Source: Phyllosticta citribraziliensis (Eukaryota). Taken from it: a stretch of DNA of 64,000 bases. Every line of letters starts with the position of its first letter. Within the stretch, counting starts at the first letter, position 1. Positions 4,355 to 64,000 of the stretch are shown in pieces. The stretch lies in the NCBI RefSeq assembly GCF_038025025.1, contig NW_027117351.1, forward strand, positions 434,001-498,000. Direction: 5' to 3'. The notes beneath the pieces were generated by a model. The model saw nothing but the letters and a program-made list of their open reading frames with translations, did no database searches and was not told where the DNA came from. Position numbers and translations under genes: made by a program.

Positions 4355-5703
4355 TTGGCACAGAGGATACATCACGGCCTGGAAGAAATGGCTCGGCTTG
4401 CCTCCCGCTCGATGCACGAAGAGACCGTTCACTCGTTGGAATCCGGGGAAGAGCAAGGTGCCGTGCCGCTCCGACATCAGCGTCTGTAGAACCTGTTGTT
4501 ATCTGGATCCCCCGCCGAGCATCTCAAGGCGACATTGCTCTACAGATGGGAAAGGCTGTCGCCAGCTGCTCCACTGCCCGTTACGCAGCTCAAACATTCC
4601 GAAAGAAAAGCAGAAGCAGAATTTCTGCGTAACGATAAGCGTGTCAAAATCACGGCCACCGCTCTTTCAGTCGAAGCTCAGTGGTGGCTAGCTCCATGCG
4701 CAAGACTGCCTTTTTCGCGGCTTTCCACATTTAGCAACTTCAAACGTCGCAAAGATGCGATATCGGCAGGCTCCATTTCTAGCGTCCCGCAAGTAGGAGC
4801 TCAGCCTGGCCTGTGCGCCTGGGGTTTGTGGAGAAGACACCACATGTCGATGATGCAGCCACTACGCAGCAGCTTGGTCTGTAATCGGGCCCCTACAATC
4901 ATGCTGTCGATTGTCCCTGCTTCGACTTGGTTTTCCGGCTACCTGGTTTGGTGTTGGCAGGTAAATGTCATCTGTCATCCCCAAACCAACATGCTAGCAC
5001 ACCACAAACGCTTTTGAGATTGTAGCACACGTTGGATTACTCCAACTTCTGTTGTGATCTGTTTTATATCGGCATTGCCCAGTCGCCTCTCCCTGAACGC
5101 CGCGATCCCGGGCCTGGAGACTCAGATACTCGCCCAATAACAAATTACGCATCTGTCTCTGACCTGTCTCTGTACATTTTGATTGAAAAGGATCCCGATG
5201 CTTGAAATACTTCAAGGGTACTTTGGCCTTTTTCCCTGGGCTGTCCGTGCTCAGCCCCCGGTGTTTTCTCGCCTAGTGTCAATTCAGGCGGTCTTAGGCA
5301 CGCACATGACGATGATGCTTCATGACGAACCAGCACCAAATTTCAGGGGTCCTACTGAACCACGTTCTTGTATGCGTCTGGTTCTTCGCGTGGAAGTCTC
5401 GCGCAGTTGTTGTTGGTTTCCTGCATTGTTTTGACCCCACAACACCACATACATACATACGTTCTCTGCAAGGCTGAGCGCTCACTCTCGCCATCACCTT
5501 ACCGACCACGACTTCGTACTACAACAATTGGACATCTCTGCTTTGTCTGCTGTGCTGGTCAGTCTTCGAATCGTGCCACGACCAACCATCTCAAGGCCCC
5601 CAGCGCCACCAGTGCACTCGGCTGAAGCCAACCAACATACGCATAAAAAGCAACTTTCGGGGGGTCACATATGTAGGCTCAGCCGCCTCTCAGACGGACT
5701 CAG

Positions 5704-6486
5704 ATGCTAATAGGAAGTAGAATTGCAGCGCTCAGATTGCTGTCGAGGATGATGCAGAGGAGGAGACTATCCAAACCTGCCCCGCTGGGCCAGACCGTCA
5801 AATCCCGAAGTCGCACCAGCCTCGAAGACAATGAAGTTTCTACATTGCTGCTAGACGAGCATCATACTTTTCCGCACCGCTTTTTCCGTTCTCACACCAC
5901 TCCAACCACCAACACTGCTGCGTCTCCCAGTGTCCGTCGAAACAAGAGTGCTCCGTCTTGCTTCCAGGTCTTGCCACCTGCTCGCTCAGCAGTATCAATC
6001 TACGAGGAATCGTCGGCTTTTGCAGCTCGCACAACTTCCAAGAAGTTGCAGAAGAAACAGCCTCTGGGCGAGGAAGACGGCAACGCTGGGGAGCGCTCCA
6101 GCACAGATCCTACCGCGAAACAGACGGCAATTGAAGAAGCACGTTCTCTCCTTGGTTTCGGACCCCGCGAGACTACCTTCGCTGTCAATGACAAGAACAA
6201 ATCGATACCTCATCCACCTTCATCTTTTGCTGTCAACGCGAGCTCTCCAGCCGTCACCAGCAACTACCACCCGCCACAGCCCTCAGGTCACAGCATCCAA
6301 CATCCAATCAACGTGGTTCATCAAAAGCCTTGTCCGCTGATTCGCAGAGGCACAATACAGCCTCTGAGGCGTTGGAAGTGTTGCAACTGCGGTGTCAAGA
6401 CCAACTACGATTTCCATGTTTGCTCGAGGCTTGCGTGTGGTCATGAGCGTTGCGAGGGTGCTTGTGTCACTTTTGAGCCTACTTGA
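5704..6486 (+). CDS. Hypothetical protein with C-terminal Cys/His zinc-binding motif (paralog 1 of 4)
   Basis: Low-complexity Ser/Pro body; C-terminus WKCCNCGVKTNYDFHVCSRLACGHERCEGAC. The true start may be ATG ~5749 after a 5' intron. Confidence 0.75.
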   Translation: MLIGSRIAALRLLSRMMQRRRLSKPAPLGQTVKSRSRTSLEDNEVSTLLLDEHHTFPHRFFRSHTTPTTNTAASPSVRRNKSAPSCFQVLPPARSAVSIYEESSAFAARTTSKKLQKKQPLGEEDGNAGERSSTDPTAKQTAIEEARSLLGFGPRETTFAVNDKNKSIPHPPSSFAVNASSPAVTSNYHPPQPSGHSIQHPINVVHQKPCPLIRRGTIQPLRRWKCCNCGVKTNYDFHVCSRLACGHERCEGACVTFEPT

Positions 6487-7065
6487 GAAGCTCTCTTGTC
6501 TGTTTTATGGACTTGGGTCAAGATACTCGACACTTTCGCGCCGGGCGGGTGCTGCGGTTGAAATATATCTCACATTGCTTTCTCCAATTTATACATGGTG
6601 TATCGGTAGTTGTTCTCTCTTAGTATACCGTCAACATCTGAGCAACTTCAAGTAAGGCAGGACGAGAAAACTTCCTTTGATTTTGGGGTACGCAAAGTTG
6701 CAACTTGGCTGGGGAAACAAAGCCATAACAGCTGGTCGCTTGCCCGCTTGCAGGACTGTTTCCAGAAGCCCCAGCGTACTGCTTGTTGTGGGGACGCTCT
6801 ACTGCAAACTCCACTGCTGCGTGTACCCAATTTCCACCAACACTGCACCCAATCAATCATCCCGACCGCTCTTCTCTCGCCAGACTCTCCTTCCAACACG
6901 AAAGGGAGCTGTCCATCCTGCTTATCCCTTCCAACCTCTACTTCATGGTTTCGTCTTCTGGGCAGTCTCTTCTATATACATGTAAGTCTCCATGGTCTCT
7001 GCCACAGCACTTTAGACCGAAGCTTACGAAGATTCGAATACAAGGTTTCTGGAGACTACGGCACA

Positions 7066-7691
7066 ATGAAGACCGGAAAGGAGCTCCGAAACAAACTCAA
7101 GAAGCACAAAGGCTTGGGTGCTGCCTCTCGACGCAATGTCGATACGCAAGACCACAGGCACGCCGAGATGCTTGATTCCGAGCGTAAGTTCAGCGGAATT
7201 GTAGCGCCTTGAGACGAAGACGTTGACTCCATACAGCGAAGGAACCTGCGCGGCTGTCTACTGATGCTAGCGGCCAAACCTTGTCCCCAATTTCCAACAA
7301 CATCCCTACTGATGTTAATGCCGCGACCCTCCTGCCTCATGAGCAGATGGGCTCTTCTGCCCGCGATTCGATTTCCTCGAGAAGCAGCTGGGACCGCGCG
7401 GTCCTCGCCGAGTTTACACCTGAGCTGTGCACTGCCACCAAGCAGACCGACGACACTCTCGTCGCCTCGCGCACTCATTCGCAGAACGCCGACGAGATTG
7501 AGCATCCATTCAAAGTATACTACCAGAGAGCCCGTTCAGGACTTGCAGGAGGGCTGATCCACGCGTGGAAGAAATGGGAATGCTGCCATTGCGGCTCGGT
7601 GACGCACTACGAGAACCATTTCTGCTCGCGTCTGCCGTGCTGCCACAAGCGCTGCGAGGCGCAGTGCACGACTCTTGAAGCTTCTGGCTAG
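7066..7691 (+). CDS. Hypothetical protein with C-terminal zinc-binding motif (paralog 2 of 4)
   Basis: Lys-rich exon 1 (MKTGKELRNKLKK). The phase-1 intron 7184-7236 (GTAAGT..TTGAC..CAG) joins in frame to WECCHCGSVTHYENHFCSRLPCCHKRCEAQC. Confidence 0.75.
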
Positions 7692-8474
7692 GCAAAGGCA
7701 AAGGCCAGACGATCTTTCTGGCCACTTCGGAGAGTATTTGGGCGGATGGCGTGTGGGCTTGACTGGAGTGATTGGAATAAAGGCTGGTTATAGACGAGAA
7801 GGCGAGCCCGGCCGATTTCGTGCGCGACTGGAAAGAGGGCGTACCTCAAAAACAACTTGCTTTTCAAATCGCCCTTGAGAGTCCCAATTGGCGACGTTCT
7901 CTCTGAAGCGCGTCCAAGTTTTACTGATCTTTGGGTGCCATTCGTAGTGGGGAGGACGCGACGGTGGACAACTTCCTCAGTCTTTATTCCCAGTTTTTGG
8001 CGCGCTGGGGCATCTCATGAAATTAACACCAGCGCAGTGGTATTACCAGTCCGGCCCACGGCAGCTGCACCCACGCTCTGCTGGGCCAAATTCGGCAGTC
8101 TATTGTTGACATTGTTCACACTATTCACTTTGGTGTGCTCGGGGCCTGCCGGGTCTACTTTCACAGTCTGTTGGCATTGTTTACATGGGTTTTGAACATT
8201 TGGGGTGTCCGGCTGCACTCGACTGTATTCACTTTAGTTCACAATGCTCTTGGGAAGGCCGTGCAATAAGAATGCCCACCTACCTCTGTGCGCCCGTCTT
8301 CATCTTCCTCTCTCTCCTCTAACATCTTCAAACCTCTACATCGCGGACCTTGACTGCGACGTTTCCTTCAAGCATCCTTACAAGCGCCATTCACTACGTA
8401 TGCTGCCATCCTCTTCGCATTCGATGCTCCTGCTGATCAAGACGAGACAGAAGAAACAACTCCAAGGTCTCAAA

Positions 8475-9123
8475 ATGGAGGCATACAACAGATCTCGCAA
8501 AAAGGTCTCGAAGTTTGCAAAGCCCAAGAATGGCGACAAGTCGACCATTCGCCGCCGCCGCGCTGCTCGCCACTCTGAGCGTAGGAACGCTGAGGCCTCA
8601 CGTTCTGACGGTAAGTTCGCCCGAACCTCAAAAGCTGCGATACCCTGAGAACAAGACCCTGACTGAGAATGCAGAGAGCAATTCTTCAGGCTCGACCCGT
8701 GGATTCTTTGCCCGCTTTCGCAAGCGTCAAGCCTCGCCCACCGGAGACAACCCAACCAAGAAGACCGTCTTCTCGCCCTTCAAGACGTTCGCCAACAAAA
8801 AGATCTCCGCACTCAAGGCACGCTTCGCAACTCGCATGCCGACGATCGCAACTCTCTTCGCCGGACTCCTCAAGCCCAAGTCGAGCACAAGCACCCCGGT
8901 GACTTTGACGCCTGAACCACAGGTCGCCGAAGAAGAGGAGGATTACCAACACGACACTCGCCAGCAGCTGCCGCGTCCTCCATCCGGTGGACTCCTCAGC
9001 GCTGTGAGGTCATGGGAGTGCTGCAGCTGCGGCGGCACAACCGGCTACAACAATTACTTCTGCCCGGAGTGTGGCAAGAAGCGCTGTGGCAGCTGTTCTA
9101 CGACCCACGAGCCTTACGTCTGA
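8475..9123 (+). CDS. Hypothetical protein with C-terminal zinc-binding motif (paralog 3 of 4)
   Basis: Basic exon 1 (MEAYNRSRKKVSK, good AAAATGG context). The phase-1 intron 8611-8674 joins in frame to WECCSCGGTTGYNNYFCPECGKKRCGSC. Confidence 0.7.
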
Positions 9124-9960
9124 ACAAGAAGACTTTGACGGTTCGGTGAAGGATCGGGCTCCGTCAAAGAAGGCTCTGTATCATTCTTCTCTCTTTTGGG
9201 TTTCATTTGCTATAAAGGATATCGACTTGGGTGGGATGGGATACGATGCGGAGTTCAGGCAAATTGGGCGTACAGGGCAGATAGCCGGTGTTAATTGGCG
9301 ATGGAGTCTTTTCTGGTGTCTCTTTGAATCCCTTTGTTTCAGCTCGTGGTTTTCTACTGCTGCCTCCCTTCTGAGGCAATACAAATTAAAACCTGGGGCT
9401 TTCCACGGTGCATGCTCCACCTTCAGGGTTCGTGATCGTGACAAAGTGTAAAGGAAGATGGTTGATTTGACGGAAGCTTGGAACGACTTGTAGGTGAATG
9501 TAATGTCCTTCTCCCAGCAGCAAGGTGGCTTGCAGAACTGAAAGCAACTTTTCCCGTGTCCATCACTGCTCTTGATGCTTTCCTGCAATGCCGCCTGTTT
9601 GACCACCCTAGCCGTTTTGGGCTGTTCGTGGTAAGCGAGGTTGCGTAAACACCGATATTGACCGCGTCCTCCTCCAAATTCTTGCACAACAGAGCCTAGC
9701 CAGCTGTTGATTCAACCCCGGTTTGAATCATCTGGCTCGCTGTCGCGCGTTGGGAGCTTTCTTCCGTTTGCTTCTTTTCTCGTCAGTCCTCCCCCTTCAG
9801 GTGTTTGTCTTTGCATGAGAACTCACCTCTTCTCACAGCCCCAGGTAACAAAACCTCGCCCAAACCAAGGCCGCCCAAGTAAGAATCTTCCCGTGGTGAA
9901 GGCTGGACCTGGTGCTAACCAAGAGGCCAGGTAACACTGCTATTAGAACCTCGCGTCACG

Positions 9961-10980
9961 ATGTCTGCGCCCGCTGCGCCCGCCGCTGTGGAGCAGGAGG
10001 TAAGAGCAGGCTCCGGAACCTCCTAGACTTGCGCCGAGAAGACTCATTAACGACATCATCAGGGTGCGCCGCTCTCGGCGTCGAGCCCTGAGCATAAAAG
10101 GGCGGAGACGGAAGCCCCGTCTCCTTCTTCCTCGAACCTTGACCTCGAGGAAGACGACGCCGACGACGAAGCCCCTCTGCTCCCACACGAGCGGATCGAC
10201 CCCCCGGCGCCCTCTCCCTCTCCCTCACCCTCCCCCTCCCCATCCCCCGAGAGCCCAGGCTCTCCCGACACCATGCGCCGCAGCAACAGCGCTCCGGCCT
10301 CGTCCTCCTCGTCGTCGTCGGGTCTCGCCGCCCTGACGCGCGCCACGGCTCGCCGCCTCCAAAGGAGGTCGTCCTCCAAGGCGAAGACCGGCGGCGACGA
10401 GGCTGGTCAGGCCGGCCCGCCTGCGGCCAACAGAGAAGACCTCATTCGTGAGGCACAGGCTGCCCTGGACCTGGGACCGCGGGACCCCACGCTGTCCACC
10501 ATCGTGTCGGCCATGTTGTCGGCACCTCAGCGCGCCACCACCACCACCACCGCCGCCGCCCCATCCTCCTCCTCCGCCGCCGCCGCTGCCGGCACCTCCA
10601 CCCGGGACTTTGCGCCCGTCCAGCAGCTCTCCAGCCTCCGCGTGGCCAGCGACGAGGCCGACGACGAAGCCGGCGCTCTCGAGGCCGACATGGCGAGCTA
10701 CATCAACGCGCCCTCGCCCCAGCCAGCCCAGCCCGCCGCCCAGGAGTGGGTCGCGCCCAACGACGACGACGACGTCGTCCACCACCCGCGCCACGTCGTG
10801 TACATGCGGCCCGTCAAGACCATCGGCCCGTTCGGCATGTGGCTGGAGGAGTTCAAGCGCTGGCAGTGCTGCCACTGCGGCTGCAAGACGCACTACGAGA
10901 ACCACGTCTGCTCCAACCTCTCTTGCATGCACCGTCGCTGCTACGAGCATTGCTGCACCTGTCTGCCTGCCAACGGTTAG
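9961..10980 (+). CDS. Hypothetical protein with C-terminal zinc-binding motif (paralog 4 of 4)
   Basis: Exon 1 MSAPAAPAAVEQE, intron 10000-10062, in frame with ORF 10273-10980 ending WQCCHCGCKTHYENHVCSNLSCMHRRCYEHCCTCLPANG*. High GC3. Confidence 0.8.
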
Positions 10981-11721
10981 CGTGGCCTACCATTTCAGCC
11001 GCCCAGTCAGTTAGTTGGTCGGGCTTCTTCCTTCTCTTACGTTGAATTGAAGGAAGCGTTGAAGATGGATAGCGAAAGGTCAGTCAACTCACCTGCCTCG
11101 ACACTTGATGAGTACAAGACTAACTGGCCCTCAGGTTTTACGAGAGTTGCTGCGCGTGTTTGCCTGCCAACGCTCAGCCGTTTGAGGTCCCCATCGGTCG
11201 GGTGGGCTTCTTCCTTCTCTTACGTGAATTGAAGGAAGACTTGAAGATGACGTCGCCAAAGGTCAGTCAACTCACCTGTCTCCACGCTCAATGAGTACAA
11301 GACTAACTGGCCCCCAGGTTCTATGAGCATTGCTGCGCCTGTTTGCCTGCCGACATTGAGCGTCGCGTACCGTCTGGGCCATTCAGTCACTCGGGCTTCT
11401 TCCTTCTTTTACGTTGAACTGAAGGGAGTTGAATACAGCCTAGCGAAAGGTCAGTCAGCCCATGCGCCTCCTCACTTGATGAGACAAGACTGACTGGCCT
11501 TCAGGTTCCATGAGCATTGCTGTACCCGTTTTCCCTGGCGACATCAAGCGTCGCGTACCGTCACCTACAGTGTGGACCACTCAGCCCGCCCCTCAAACAG
11601 CCAGGCCTCTTCCTTCTTTTACGTTGAACTGAAGGAAGACTCAAAGACAGCACAGCGACAGGTCAGCCCGCTCACCCTTCTCCCCACTCATTGCATACAA
11701 TACTGACTGTCCTTCAGGTTT
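10942..11721 (+). repeat. Tandem repeat, 4 diverged units of ~183-212 bp, each containing a 55-56 nt intron-like segment
   Basis: Units start ~10942, 11139, 11322, 11509. Shared blocks: YAYGAGCATTGCTG, GGCTTCTTCCTTCTYTTACGT, AAGGTCAG, ACTRACTG..CAGGTT. Confidence 0.9.
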
Positions 11722-12611
11722 TCAGGTTTCAGATTTTCCGACGGTTGGATGGACGCACTTCAGGATCTCGATCGGCCAGAGTGTTTTCCCGCACACATAC
11801 CCGTCACTCCCCACGTCGGCATGAGACGCTTTGTCTTGCCTTCCCCTTACACCTTGCACTCTGTAGACCACGATACCCCACTCCCCTCTCGTAGCTAGCC
11901 GCACGTGTTAGCTTTGCACAATCCAGCTTTCAGGATGGTTCGTTTTCTTGTTGTTTGTGTTGGCGGGACGTACATCGCGAGCCTGCCTCCCCCATCGTCT
12001 ATGTGCAGTTTGTGCGTCCCATCTCTTTGTGTACCAGGTACACGATTTCGAGTGGTCTGGAGAAACCAATCTGCTTCGAAAATCAGCACTGCCTCATCTG
12101 CGTCTTCCTAACACGCGCAACCGCGACGCATTAGGCCCTTCAACCCACAGAATCTGCCTCCATGGCTGTGTCCTCGCTCCACTGGAGCCAGTTCCTCCCT
12201 CTCCCGCCATCGCCAATGCACCGCCGTCCATTGCAGAAGCCATAGTCACGCCCCTCACACCCAACCCCATGCCCACCGACACCGAATTCCGTTCCGTCCT
12301 ATGCCACCCAGCCCAGCCAACCCATGCATCCCAGCCACGCACTACAAGCAGTGCGACCAAAGAAAGAGGAGCCAACAGCGCCAGAGCGAGGGAAAAGGTA
12401 TCAGAGGAGCCATTGACCGCAAAAGGAAGCACCGCGTTGCTGTGTCTTCCATCTCGTCTCGTGTGTCGTGTCTACACCTCGCGCTCTTGCGGGACAGATA
12501 TGCTTGGACCTGGCTGGTGATGATTGGAGATCTGAGTATGTACGCATGTGTGTTCGGGAGGAAAAGGTGGGAAAGAGAGGGATAGATGGGGTGGATGGGA
12601 TAGGATAGGAA

Positions 12612-12688
12612 GTCGCAAGGAATAAGACTCCCTTGATCTGGCTGCGGCGGCAGTGGATGACTGCTTCCTAAGCGTGACTGTAGTAGCT
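12612..12688. mobile_element. Partial MITE family A fragment
   Basis: GTCGCAAGGAATAAGACTCCCTTGATCTGGCTGCGGC matches the reverse complement of ~50425-50460. GACTGCTTCCTAAGCGTG matches 1241-1258. Confidence 0.6.
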
Positions 12689-13059
12689 ACGAAGAAGACA
12701 GGCGGATTGCTAGTCTGGTCGGGGTGGATACACTTGGGCTGAAAGAAAGTTTATGCATACGTGTTGTGTAAGTGATGGCTGCGAGCACGTAGGGCACTGC
12801 GTTGTTGCGAGAAGCTTACGCAGAAAGAGATGATGGCTTTTGAAGAGCGAGGGATGAAAGATCGGAAAATGGGCAAGTCTGTTTAGCGTGCCTGTAAGTG
12901 TCTGAGGGAATTGCAAGGTCCAGCGGGATGAAGGAGACCGGACGCTTACCCAGCAAACGCATCATTGACCCTCAAGAACCGCGGGCAAAGAGTCTCTGCT
13001 CCAAGAGGGTTGGGCATATCCATTCGATTTTCCGAGCCACCACACCAACACCCGCCAAC

Positions 13060-13827
13060 CTACCACTCTCCCACCCTCTCAAACAAGCGGAACTCAAACT
13101 CGACCTCCTCGACCCCCTCTTCCGCCTTGACAACCTCCTTCACACACCCCTCGGGCACATCCTCCCCCACGAATGCGCTCAACTCATGATTGCTCTTCCT
13201 CGTCCACCCCTCGCCCTCGACGTTAACCGGGAAGAATGTGTCGCACTCCCAATCGCGCTGAATCCGCGTCAGGAGCACCGTCCGCGCATTCGGCGTCTCG
13301 AGCGCGGCCTTGTACAGCGCTGCACCGCCAATGACGAAGAGGCGCCCCAGACCGGCGAGCGGCTCGCCTCCCACGAGAGTCTGTTCCTGAGTATTGTGGT
13401 CCTCATCAGCCAGCCGATTCGATGATATGGCGTCAAGCTTCTCCAGCGCAGCAGGCAGAGACGAGGCAGTAATAACGGTATCGCCCTTTGCCGCGGCGTC
13501 GGCGACGCCAGCGATGGACGAGGCGGGCGAGCGCGATATGACGACGTTGAGCCTGTCCTTGAGCGGCCGGAAGCGCGGCGGGATCGAGTCCCAGGTCTTT
13601 CGGCCCATGACTACGGCGTTGCAGATGTGTGGAAGAGAAGAGGTCGTAGCAGAGGTGGGCGAGGGCACGCGCTTGGTGACGCGCGCGAAGTATGCCATTT
13701 CTTTCTTGAGCATTGGCCATGGCAGGCCGCCGCCTTTGCCGATGCCGAGGGACGGCGTTGTTGCGACGATGAGCGTCAGCGGGAGGCGCGAGGTCAGTGG
13801 CGGAGGCATGGTTGCGTCGTCGGGCAT
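13060..13827 (-). CDS. DFR1: Dihydrofolate reductase
   Basis: LIVA...GIGK.GGLPWP.LKKEMAYF.RVT, NAVVMGRKTWDSIP..FRPLKDRLNVVIS, FVIGGA.LY, CDTFFP. Intronless. Confidence 0.95.
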   Translation of the reverse strand: MPDDATMPPPLTSRLPLTLIVATTPSLGIGKGGGLPWPMLKKEMAYFARVTKRVPSPTSATTSSLPHICNAVVMGRKTWDSIPPRFRPLKDRLNVVISRSPASSIAGVADAAAKGDTVITASSLPAALEKLDAISSNRLADEDHNTQEQTLVGGEPLAGLGRLFVIGGAALYKAALETPNARTVLLTRIQRDWECDTFFPVNVEGEGWTRKSNHELSAFVGEDVPEGCVKEVVKAEEGVEEVEFEFRLFERVGEW

Positions 13828-13897
13828 TGTGGTTGTAAATTTGGCGGCGTCTTGGTCGTTGTGGTCGTGATGGCGGGGGAGAGCAAAAGTGCGGGAG

Positions 13898-13920
13898 ACG
13901 CGTTAATTGGCACGACGCGT
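13898..13920. promoter_or_regulatory. Two MCB boxes (ACGCGT) upstream of DHFR
   Basis: ACGCGT at 13898-13903 and 13915-13920, 70-95 bp upstream of the DHFR ATG. Confidence 0.6.
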
Positions 13921-48813: not shown

Positions 48814-48992
48814 GGCTCGGTCACAACAGTCGTCGCACACACAACAAGAGTAGGGAATCAGTGTCGTCAATCAGGGAGCATTCATACTGTAACCGATGAC
48901 TGATTGGGAGCGTTCATACCCTGTGCCGATGACTAACAGGGAGCATTCAAGTGTCTGAGTGTTGTTGGATGATTGGACGACTTTCTCAGCCC
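48814..48992. mobile_element. MITE-like element, family B, degenerate copy
   Basis: Left end GGCTCGGTCACAACAGTCGTCGCACAC matches the family B TIR. Three GGGAGCRTTCA units are colinear with the 41669 copy. Right end GGACGACTTTCTCAGCC. Confidence 0.65.
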
Positions 48993-63853: not shown

Positions 63854-64000
63854 ACAGTGGGTGTCGAAAGAAATTACAACTCCTGGCAATACAAGCGTGT
63901 CTAGGGAGCGTTCATTTGCTGCTTCGCCTGCGCTTAAGGAGCATTCATTTACTGCTCCGCCTATGTTTAAGGAGCATTCATACACCTGTACATGCGCTTA
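63854..64000. mobile_element. MITE family A copy, truncated by the window end
   Basis: TIR ACAGTGGGTGTCGAAAGAAAT preceded by GCGGCC. Three GGAGCRTTCA cores 33 bp apart. The reverse complement aligns with 1251-1366. Confidence 0.75.

Follow-up and report, generated by a model that had tools for sequence, protein, structure and literature searches.

Results

A tandem-duplicated cassette probably spliced on both strands

We analyzed a window of 64,000 nucleotides from Phyllosticta citribraziliensis (RefSeq assembly GCF_038025025.1, contig NW_027117351.1, positions 434,001 to 498,000), and all positions given below are those of this window. A cysteine-rich gene, the last of four tandem paralogs and hereafter named paralog 4 (9962-10980, plus strand), is followed there by an array of four units of about 190 bp that begins within its last codons. 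We propose that this array is a tandem-duplicated cassette spliced on both strands, with antisense use of units 1 and 2 and sense use of unit 2, and we assign this reading a probability of about 0.58.

The RNA evidence consisted of contigs from four public runs (X1, X2, X4 and X6) aligned to the window. Contigs of this kind show presence; they cannot show absence, strand or level. Run X4 is an RNA library of a relative that is 90-99% alike (roughly 95%) and comes from a study other than that of X1, and X6 is a run of unspecified kind from organism C. Runs X1 and X2 are labelled "RNA?" and were treated as RNA, given that their contigs leave out short stretches bounded by canonical intron ends. 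No weight was given to gaps in coverage (X2 over the array, X6 at 11505-12506 and X1 at 10966-11091).

Two splice joints in the array were found in two runs of two studies each, and X1 and X4 agree on both within the stated ambiguity. Because their skipped segments end in CT..AC, both joints were assigned to minus-strand introns. The first (10967-11092, 126 nt, in unit 1; joint 10965 to 11092) is present in X1 (depth 58.6) and in X4, where the contig crosses the joint with no letters between its pieces. Its donor, GTGAGT, corresponds to plus-strand ACTCAC at 11087-11092, its acceptor is CAG, and its branch point, GCTAAC, is read from the strand opposite the sense stop-codon region. The second (11164-11275, 112 nt, in unit 2; joint 11162 to 11275), also of the form GTGAGT..CAG, occupies the homologous position and is present in X1 (depth 33.5) and X4. 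A 228-nt X4 contig (record 12: 10852-10967, 11094-11167 and 11280-11317) holds all three exons, and both antisense introns were therefore removed from one molecule. The middle exon (11093-11163, 71 nt, minus strand) comprises most of predicted sense intron 1 and the unit 2 copy of the paralog 4 codons, and spans the boundary between units 1 and 2.

On the plus strand, the initial annotation of this DNA, made from the letters alone, had claimed four serial introns in the 3' untranslated region (3'UTR) of paralog 4, one per unit, each of the form AG/GTCAG..ACTRAC..CAG/G. Such an element of 55-56 nt is present in all four units where it had been placed: intron 1 at 11079-11134 (56 nt, GTCAGT..ACTAAC..CAG), intron 2 at 11262-11317 (56 nt), intron 3 at 11450-11504 (55 nt) and intron 4 at 11662-11717 (56 nt, GTCAGC donor). 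All four carry the GTCAG, CTRAC and CAG signals of U2-type introns at this length, and 56 nt is also the length of a minus-strand intron verified nearby (9771-9826). Intron 2 is spliced exactly as predicted in one X1 contig of depth 25.3, which joins 11259 to 11316 and skips 56 nt with GT..AG ends (cut +2), the shorter side of the joint being 30 letters. This joint was read as a plus-strand splice since no placement within its 4-nt ambiguity yields CT..AC. For introns 1, 3 and 4, where the claim found no such match, no joint is listed among the aligned contigs, which cannot show absence. The piece 11094-11167 of X4 record 12 passes the acceptor junction of intron 1 unspliced, no contig bridges intron 3, and X1 record 5 (11494-11894) retains all of intron 4 with no joint.

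Four diverged units at the end of the gene

The stop codon of paralog 4 (TAG) lies at 10978-10980. The closest homologue, a Phyllosticta protein with 92% identity, has the identical end ...CLPANG, and the array therefore begins inside the true last codons of the gene. Tandem Repeats Finder reported 11019-11562 (period 183, 2.9 copies, 78% matches, score 594), and a repeat search of the window returned three four-copy families (D3, D4 and D5) spaced 183-212. The four tandem units of about 190 bp described in the initial annotation were recovered, with lengths of 183-213 bp by the boundaries used here. Unit 1 (10941-11137, 197 bp) includes the authentic last codons of the gene with its stop codon, as well as the first of the intron-like elements; it is followed by unit 2 (11138-11320, 183 bp) and unit 3 (11321-11507, 187 bp), both delimited by repeat search and alignment, and by unit 4 (11508-11720, 213 bp), the most diverged of the four. 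The units were also correctly described as opening with the terminal codons of paralog 4: the translations are YEHCCTCLPANG* in unit 1, then YESCCACLPAN, YEHCCACLPAD and HEHCCTRFP. The bases 3' of unit 4 resemble the start of units 2-4, and parts of the array are also present in the relatives represented by X4 and X6.

The alignment of the four units has 213 columns with a mean column identity of 79%. Pairwise identity between units is 0.68-0.84 (16-32% divergent), which suggests, from sequence comparison, that the duplications are old. Repeat-induced point mutation was considered as the source of this divergence and rejected, with transitions to transversions at about 2:1 in six of six unit pairs (18:12 to 39:19). 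Neither the 35-nt core nor the 28-nt intron end of the unit occurs elsewhere in the 64 kb (0 expected in shuffles), and of 15 places on the plus strand of the window that match a loose intron pattern, 5 fall within the 780 bp of the array.

The best-conserved block (11022-11056) has copies in units 2-4, that of unit 2 with a 1-nt deletion; in the 15-column bin starting at alignment column 106, 13 of 14 ungapped columns are invariant. The block sits in the sense "exon", that is, in the antisense intron. It is a weak hairpin or inverted repeat, CTTCCTTC-14 nt-GAAGGAAG, and not a splice signal. A conserved RNA structure was not supported: six folds gave z values of -0.10 to -1.70, and 14-90 of 200 shuffles folded equally well.

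Splice signals of the two strands share one unit

The antisense donor GTGAGT sits 8-13 nt inside the sense "intron", back to back with the sense donor GGTCAGT in one shared stretch of 15 nt, and the antisense CAG acceptor lies inside the copied codons. Because the antisense intron spans from its donor inside the sense "intron" to its acceptor inside the copied codons, the indel-rich sense "exon" is also the interior of the antisense intron, where 37 of 39 gap columns fall. The length-conserved sense "intron", together with the codon copy, corresponds to the 71-nt antisense exon 11093-11163. The indel pattern is compatible with the partition of either strand and decides neither.

The minus-strand acceptor is intact in all four units and the minus-strand donor in three (it is lost in unit 3 and reads GTGAGC in unit 4). 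In unit 3, a "mirror" minus-strand intron is predicted at 11440-11494, because the sense branch point ACTGAC reads as a donor, GTCAGT, on the opposite strand; the pattern scan gives this intron as GTCAGT..GCTGAC..TAG. In X1, record 4 stops at 11439 and record 5 begins at 11494, matching the ends of this predicted intron. No joint is listed for it among the aligned contigs, and the hint was given no weight.

Retention of the sense splice signals

The strongest alternative to our reading, and the one advanced in the initial annotation, is that the array provides four functional sense introns kept by selection to tune the stability of paralog 4 mRNA, through nonsense-mediated decay (NMD) dependent on the exon junction complex (EJC), or its 3' ends, the antisense RNA being incidental. 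We consider this unlikely, though it has evidence in its favor. In the alignment of the four units, 12 of 13 plus-strand splice-signal positions are invariant in units that are 68-84% alike, and the thirteenth shows an A/G change permitted by CTRAC (binomial P = 0.013 in a post hoc test; among 213 slid placements with this geometry, only 2 score equally well). All plus-strand signals were kept in unit 3, where the minus-strand donor was lost. This retention is real evidence that the plus-strand signals either matter or were lucky. The exact splicing of intron 2 agrees with selected sense introns, as does the position of the first sense junction, which would fall 98 nt past the stop codon. Introns in 3'UTRs are reported to cause EJC-mediated NMD in Neurospora (Zhang and Sachs 2015, via PMC7746235), and the small number of sense RNA contigs would suit an NMD target.

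The wider contrast on which this alternative was first built, conserved introns between exon parts rich in indels, was not significant. The fraction of invariant columns is 0.60 in both parts (33 of 55 for the "intron", 71 of 119 for the "exon"), and about 10 indel events with one in the "intron" give P = 0.22. The indels concentrate in alignment columns 42-90 and do not extend over the whole "exon" part. Of the claim that splicing is under selection, the retention of the signals stands and the intron/exon contrast does not. Also against this alternative, none of the joints in the aligned contigs belongs to introns 1, 3 or 4, contigs run unspliced through the acceptor junction of intron 1 and through the entire intron 4, and the better-supported joints of the array are minus-strand introns. 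Among the other paralogs, no candidate 3'UTR intron was found in paralogs 1 and 3, and paralog 2 has one loose candidate of 128 nt in a different place.

An antisense RNA over paralog 4

Contigs with minus-strand introns extend over 9392-12878 (X1 records 2, 3 and 5; X2 records 8 and 10). Besides the two introns in the array, CT..AC joints in contigs of X1, X2 or X4 define minus-strand introns at 9771-9826 (56 nt), 11895-11973, 12071-12148 and 12879-12949 (71 nt); the last of these, at the upper edge of the antisense extent, was found in X1, X2 and X4. Canonical GT..AG ends are shared by all six minus-strand introns, four of which show a CTRAC-type branch point. The contigs with CT..AC introns cover 9392-10185 and 10603-11317 and overlap the coding sequence (CDS) of paralog 4, 9962-10980, in antisense. 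X1 record 2 (9392-9770 and 9827-10185) was identified as antisense RNA over the 5' end of paralog 4, because it has lost the minus-strand intron 9771-9826 and retains the predicted sense intron 10000-10062.

The joined antisense exons hold nine open reading frames (ORFs) of at least 50 aa from ATG. The longest, of 241 aa, is a shadow of the GC-rich sense CDS, and the next has 95 aa. A Pfam search of six minus-strand ORFs at E up to 0.1 returned no family for five and one sub-threshold match (E 0.043) for the sixth; as a control, the neighboring DHFR gene was recovered at E 2.9e-23. The minus-strand product is apparently a long spliced non-coding antisense RNA, or several overlapping RNAs, and small peptides are possible.

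At the upper edge of this region, the intron 12879-12949 lies about 110 nt past the point where the DHFR gene (13060-13902, minus strand) has its stop codon. An ORF of 80 aa (12713-13023, minus strand) spans this intron, and the second exon of the ORF has a sub-threshold Pfam match to Ribosomal_L32p (E 0.043; 14.4 bits, cut-off 21.3). The intron is either a 3'UTR intron of the DHFR gene or part of a small unrecognised gene.

Paralog 4 and its neighbors

The predicted CDS of paralog 4 consists of 9962-9999 and 10063-10980, with an ORF at 10051-10980. A Phyllosticta protein of 61% identity supports the spliced N-terminus and with it the predicted sense intron at 10000-10062. All homologues found are hypothetical proteins, from two Phyllosticta species (92% and 61% identity) and from Neofusicoccum parvum; since they carry the same C-terminal cysteine motif, the plus strand is the coding strand. 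The four tandem paralogs occupy 5677-10980 on the plus strand, ending at 6486, 7691, 9123 and 10980. They share the C-terminal cysteine-rich motif W.CC.CG..T.Y....C..L.C.H.RC, and their N-terminal parts are of low complexity. Pfam returned no family for the four paralogs at E up to 1.

P0002, the annotated ortholog in a second Phyllosticta species, matches the window protein as far as ...CKTHYENH, after which unrelated residues replace the remainder of the cysteine motif. This divergence, set against 10861-10980 of the window, reflects either a doubtful gene model or a real change of the 3' end where the array starts. Just past the stop codon of paralog 3, an X6 contig joins 9127 to 9553, skipping 425 nt with ends (GA..TT) that are not those of an intron; this is probably a presence/absence difference between relatives.

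A separate observation concerns a motif, GGAGCATTCAT..ACTG, with eight matches in the window against 0.02 expected, lying partly inside 33-nt tandem arrays. The positions noted are 12612-12648 and also 1266-1315, 19115, 41789, 50408, 56706 and 63905-63954, together with arrays reported by Tandem Repeats Finder at 48872, 58808 and 63905. At 12612-12648, contigs of X1, X2 and X6 with high depth fit the 37-nt piece only and diverge from the window on both sides, and the motif is present, in reverse complement, in their loose ends. It looks like a small dispersed repeat family.

Discussion

Proposed origin of the two-strand cassette

The simplest history begins with a single-copy 3' region in which an intron-like element was already present, and tandem duplication then gave four copies of the region. 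The duplicated segment, about 190 bp long, would have run from 39 nt before the stop codon of the cysteine-rich gene to 3-5 nt past the 56-nt intron-like element, and unequal crossing-over or replication slippage may have multiplied it. Each sense element and both verified antisense introns lie wholly inside one unit, which indicates that the introns were copied with the unit; they would thus not have been created by the duplication. If the ancestral segment had complete splice signals on both strands, each copy would have added a potential sense 3'UTR intron and an antisense intron, and splicing on both strands would be largely a passive consequence of the copied signals. Sense transcripts spliced past the stop codon, if such splicing occurs, would be candidate targets of EJC-dependent NMD. 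The antisense RNA, for its part, could dampen the sense gene or interfere with it.

Several points weigh against this reading. The retention of the plus-strand signals (P = 0.013) favors selection on sense splicing over passive carriage. Contigs are strandless, and the strand calls come from splice-site letters alone; they may also merge overlapping transcripts, so that a single continuous antisense RNA is not proven by them. To call the use of the array mainly antisense is a statement about assembled contigs and not a measured ratio, because contigs cannot show absence or levels. Sense splicing was seen in one contig of one run (X1), whose RNA nature is deduced from its spliced contigs, and for units 3 and 4 the aligned contigs show no joint on the plus or the minus strand. 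In metagenome contigs, a protein-guided scan for related DNA gave 40 pattern matches, none confirmed, and a DNA-pattern scan gave none.

Alternative explanations

Beyond the selected sense introns weighed above, a more elaborate proposal combines both strands: the unit would be a two-faced splicing cassette of overlapping introns, amplified in tandem, with its four sense introns kept by selection, the mRNA bearing up to four exon junctions past its stop codon and being held down by NMD, a long non-coding antisense RNA competing for or masking splice sites, and copy number setting expression. We regard this as decidedly unlikely.

It is highly doubtful, in our view, that the antisense RNA alone is real and that the GT..AG joint 11262-11317 arose by template switching of reverse transcriptase at the repeated AGGT or as a contig chimera, the sense "introns" being pseudo-introns. 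The joint does come from one contig of one run, with a shorter side of 30 letters and 4 letters shared at the joint. Each strand of the window has 0.27 loose intron patterns per kb, and shuffled sequence has a mean of 9.3 for a 64-kb strand (about 0.15 per kb); one ancestral pseudo-intron would therefore be unremarkable. X1 contigs also leave the sense stop-codon region 10966-11091 uncovered, a gap that proves nothing. Against such an artefact, the joint falls exactly on canonical GT..AG ends with a branch point and has the 56-nt length of the verified intron 9771-9826. If template switching had taken place within the tandem array, it should have linked homologous points, at a distance of 183-212 nt and not of 56 nt, and the plus-strand signals are retained better than chance.

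Two further explanations deserve next to no credence. If the units were alternative coding 3' exons, spliced from a donor in the CDS to the CAG acceptors before the YE.CC codons, they would yield variant C-termini; an acceptor does lie directly ahead of each codon copy, and the YE.CC frame is open in the "exons" of unit 2 (41 codons) and unit 4 (51 codons). However, no joint from the CDS to any unit was found among the aligned contigs, no good donor was spotted just before 10941, the ortholog ends in ...CLPANG, and unit 2 spliced to unit 3 meets a stop after two codons. The conserved block lies in different frames from unit to unit and unit 3 has two stops; coding repeats were likewise rejected, the reading frames being inconsistent between units. 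An assembly artefact, either of the array or of its copy number, is equally hard to credit: tandem repeats are prone to mis-assembly and the boundary of units 1 and 2 is the only one bridged with at least 31 letters on both sides (X4 record 12, X6 record 21), but differences of 16-32% between units are far too large for collapse or expansion by an assembler, X1 contigs match unit-specific sequence in units 2-3 (11316-11439) and in units 3-4 and beyond (11494-11894) with 0 other letters, and array parts are present in the relatives X4 and X6.

Significance

If the two-strand reading is true, the locus is a clean natural example of how local tandem duplication, an ordinary type of mutation, can multiply the introns of the two strands simultaneously, with no transposon, adding sense 3'UTR introns together with exons and introns of an antisense RNA. 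It would provide a series of four copies with comparable splice signals for studies of intron gain, and it is a simple setting for the interplay of 3'UTR introns, NMD and antisense transcription in a filamentous fungus. Because each strand has its introns where the other has its "exons", gene models and calls of long non-coding RNAs here need stranded data, and strand-blind RNA evidence over such a locus is easily mis-assigned.

Comparison with known systems

Introns gained by tandem duplication, introns in 3'UTRs and antisense RNAs of fungi have each been known separately. Our searches, in the searchable library only, on antisense RNA in Phyllosticta and on tandem-repeat UTR introns and intron gain in fungi returned nothing relevant to this locus among the papers listed, by title or abstract for the former, and no description was found of copied 3'UTR introns in series whose repeat units also provide an antisense RNA with introns and exons.

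Judging by the title of their 2007 report, Zhuo et al. are said to have described introns arising from tandem arrays in human genes. On that title, the likeness lies in units with their own splice sites and in several introns that are alternatively used. The array described here is fungal, consists of four old, diverged units of about 190 bp, lies in a 3' region and serves both strands.

In the model of Hellsten et al., an exonic segment bearing AGGT is reportedly duplicated and the new intron is built from the exon sequence between the copies. Here, in contrast, a complete intron with donor, branch point and acceptor lies within each unit and would have been copied, it is located past the stop codon, and the same units also provide introns on the opposite strand. 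No intron spans the junction between copies, the unit boundary being 3-5 nt past the sense acceptor. What the array has in common with intron gain by tandem or segmental genomic duplication, as reported (Hellsten et al. 2011, PMC3265369; a potato RdRp case, PMC4974935), is that a single local tandem duplication increases the intron count and involves no transposon.

The sense elements can further be compared with the introns in 3'UTRs that trigger EJC-dependent NMD in Neurospora, as reported by Zhang and Sachs (2015, via PMC7746235). The junctions would lie past the stop codon here as well, at 98 nt for the first, a position that would suit an NMD target. The elements of paralog 4 form a serial array, which is not known to be part of the Neurospora work, and one of the four was seen spliced.

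Introner-like elements exist in fungi. The array resembles introners in its several similar introns of recent common origin, for which the Micromonas introners are a precedent (PMC3488318). Introners are dispersed in unrelated genes, whereas the copies here are adjacent and inside a larger duplicated unit, and no further copy was found outside the array within the 64-kb window.

Natural antisense transcripts and spliced long non-coding RNAs occur in fungi. The RNA opposite paralog 4 resembles them as a minus-strand RNA with canonical introns and no credible ORF that overlaps a coding gene end to end. It differs from them in that two of its introns and one of its exons are built from tandem copies of the last codons and 3' region of the sense gene.

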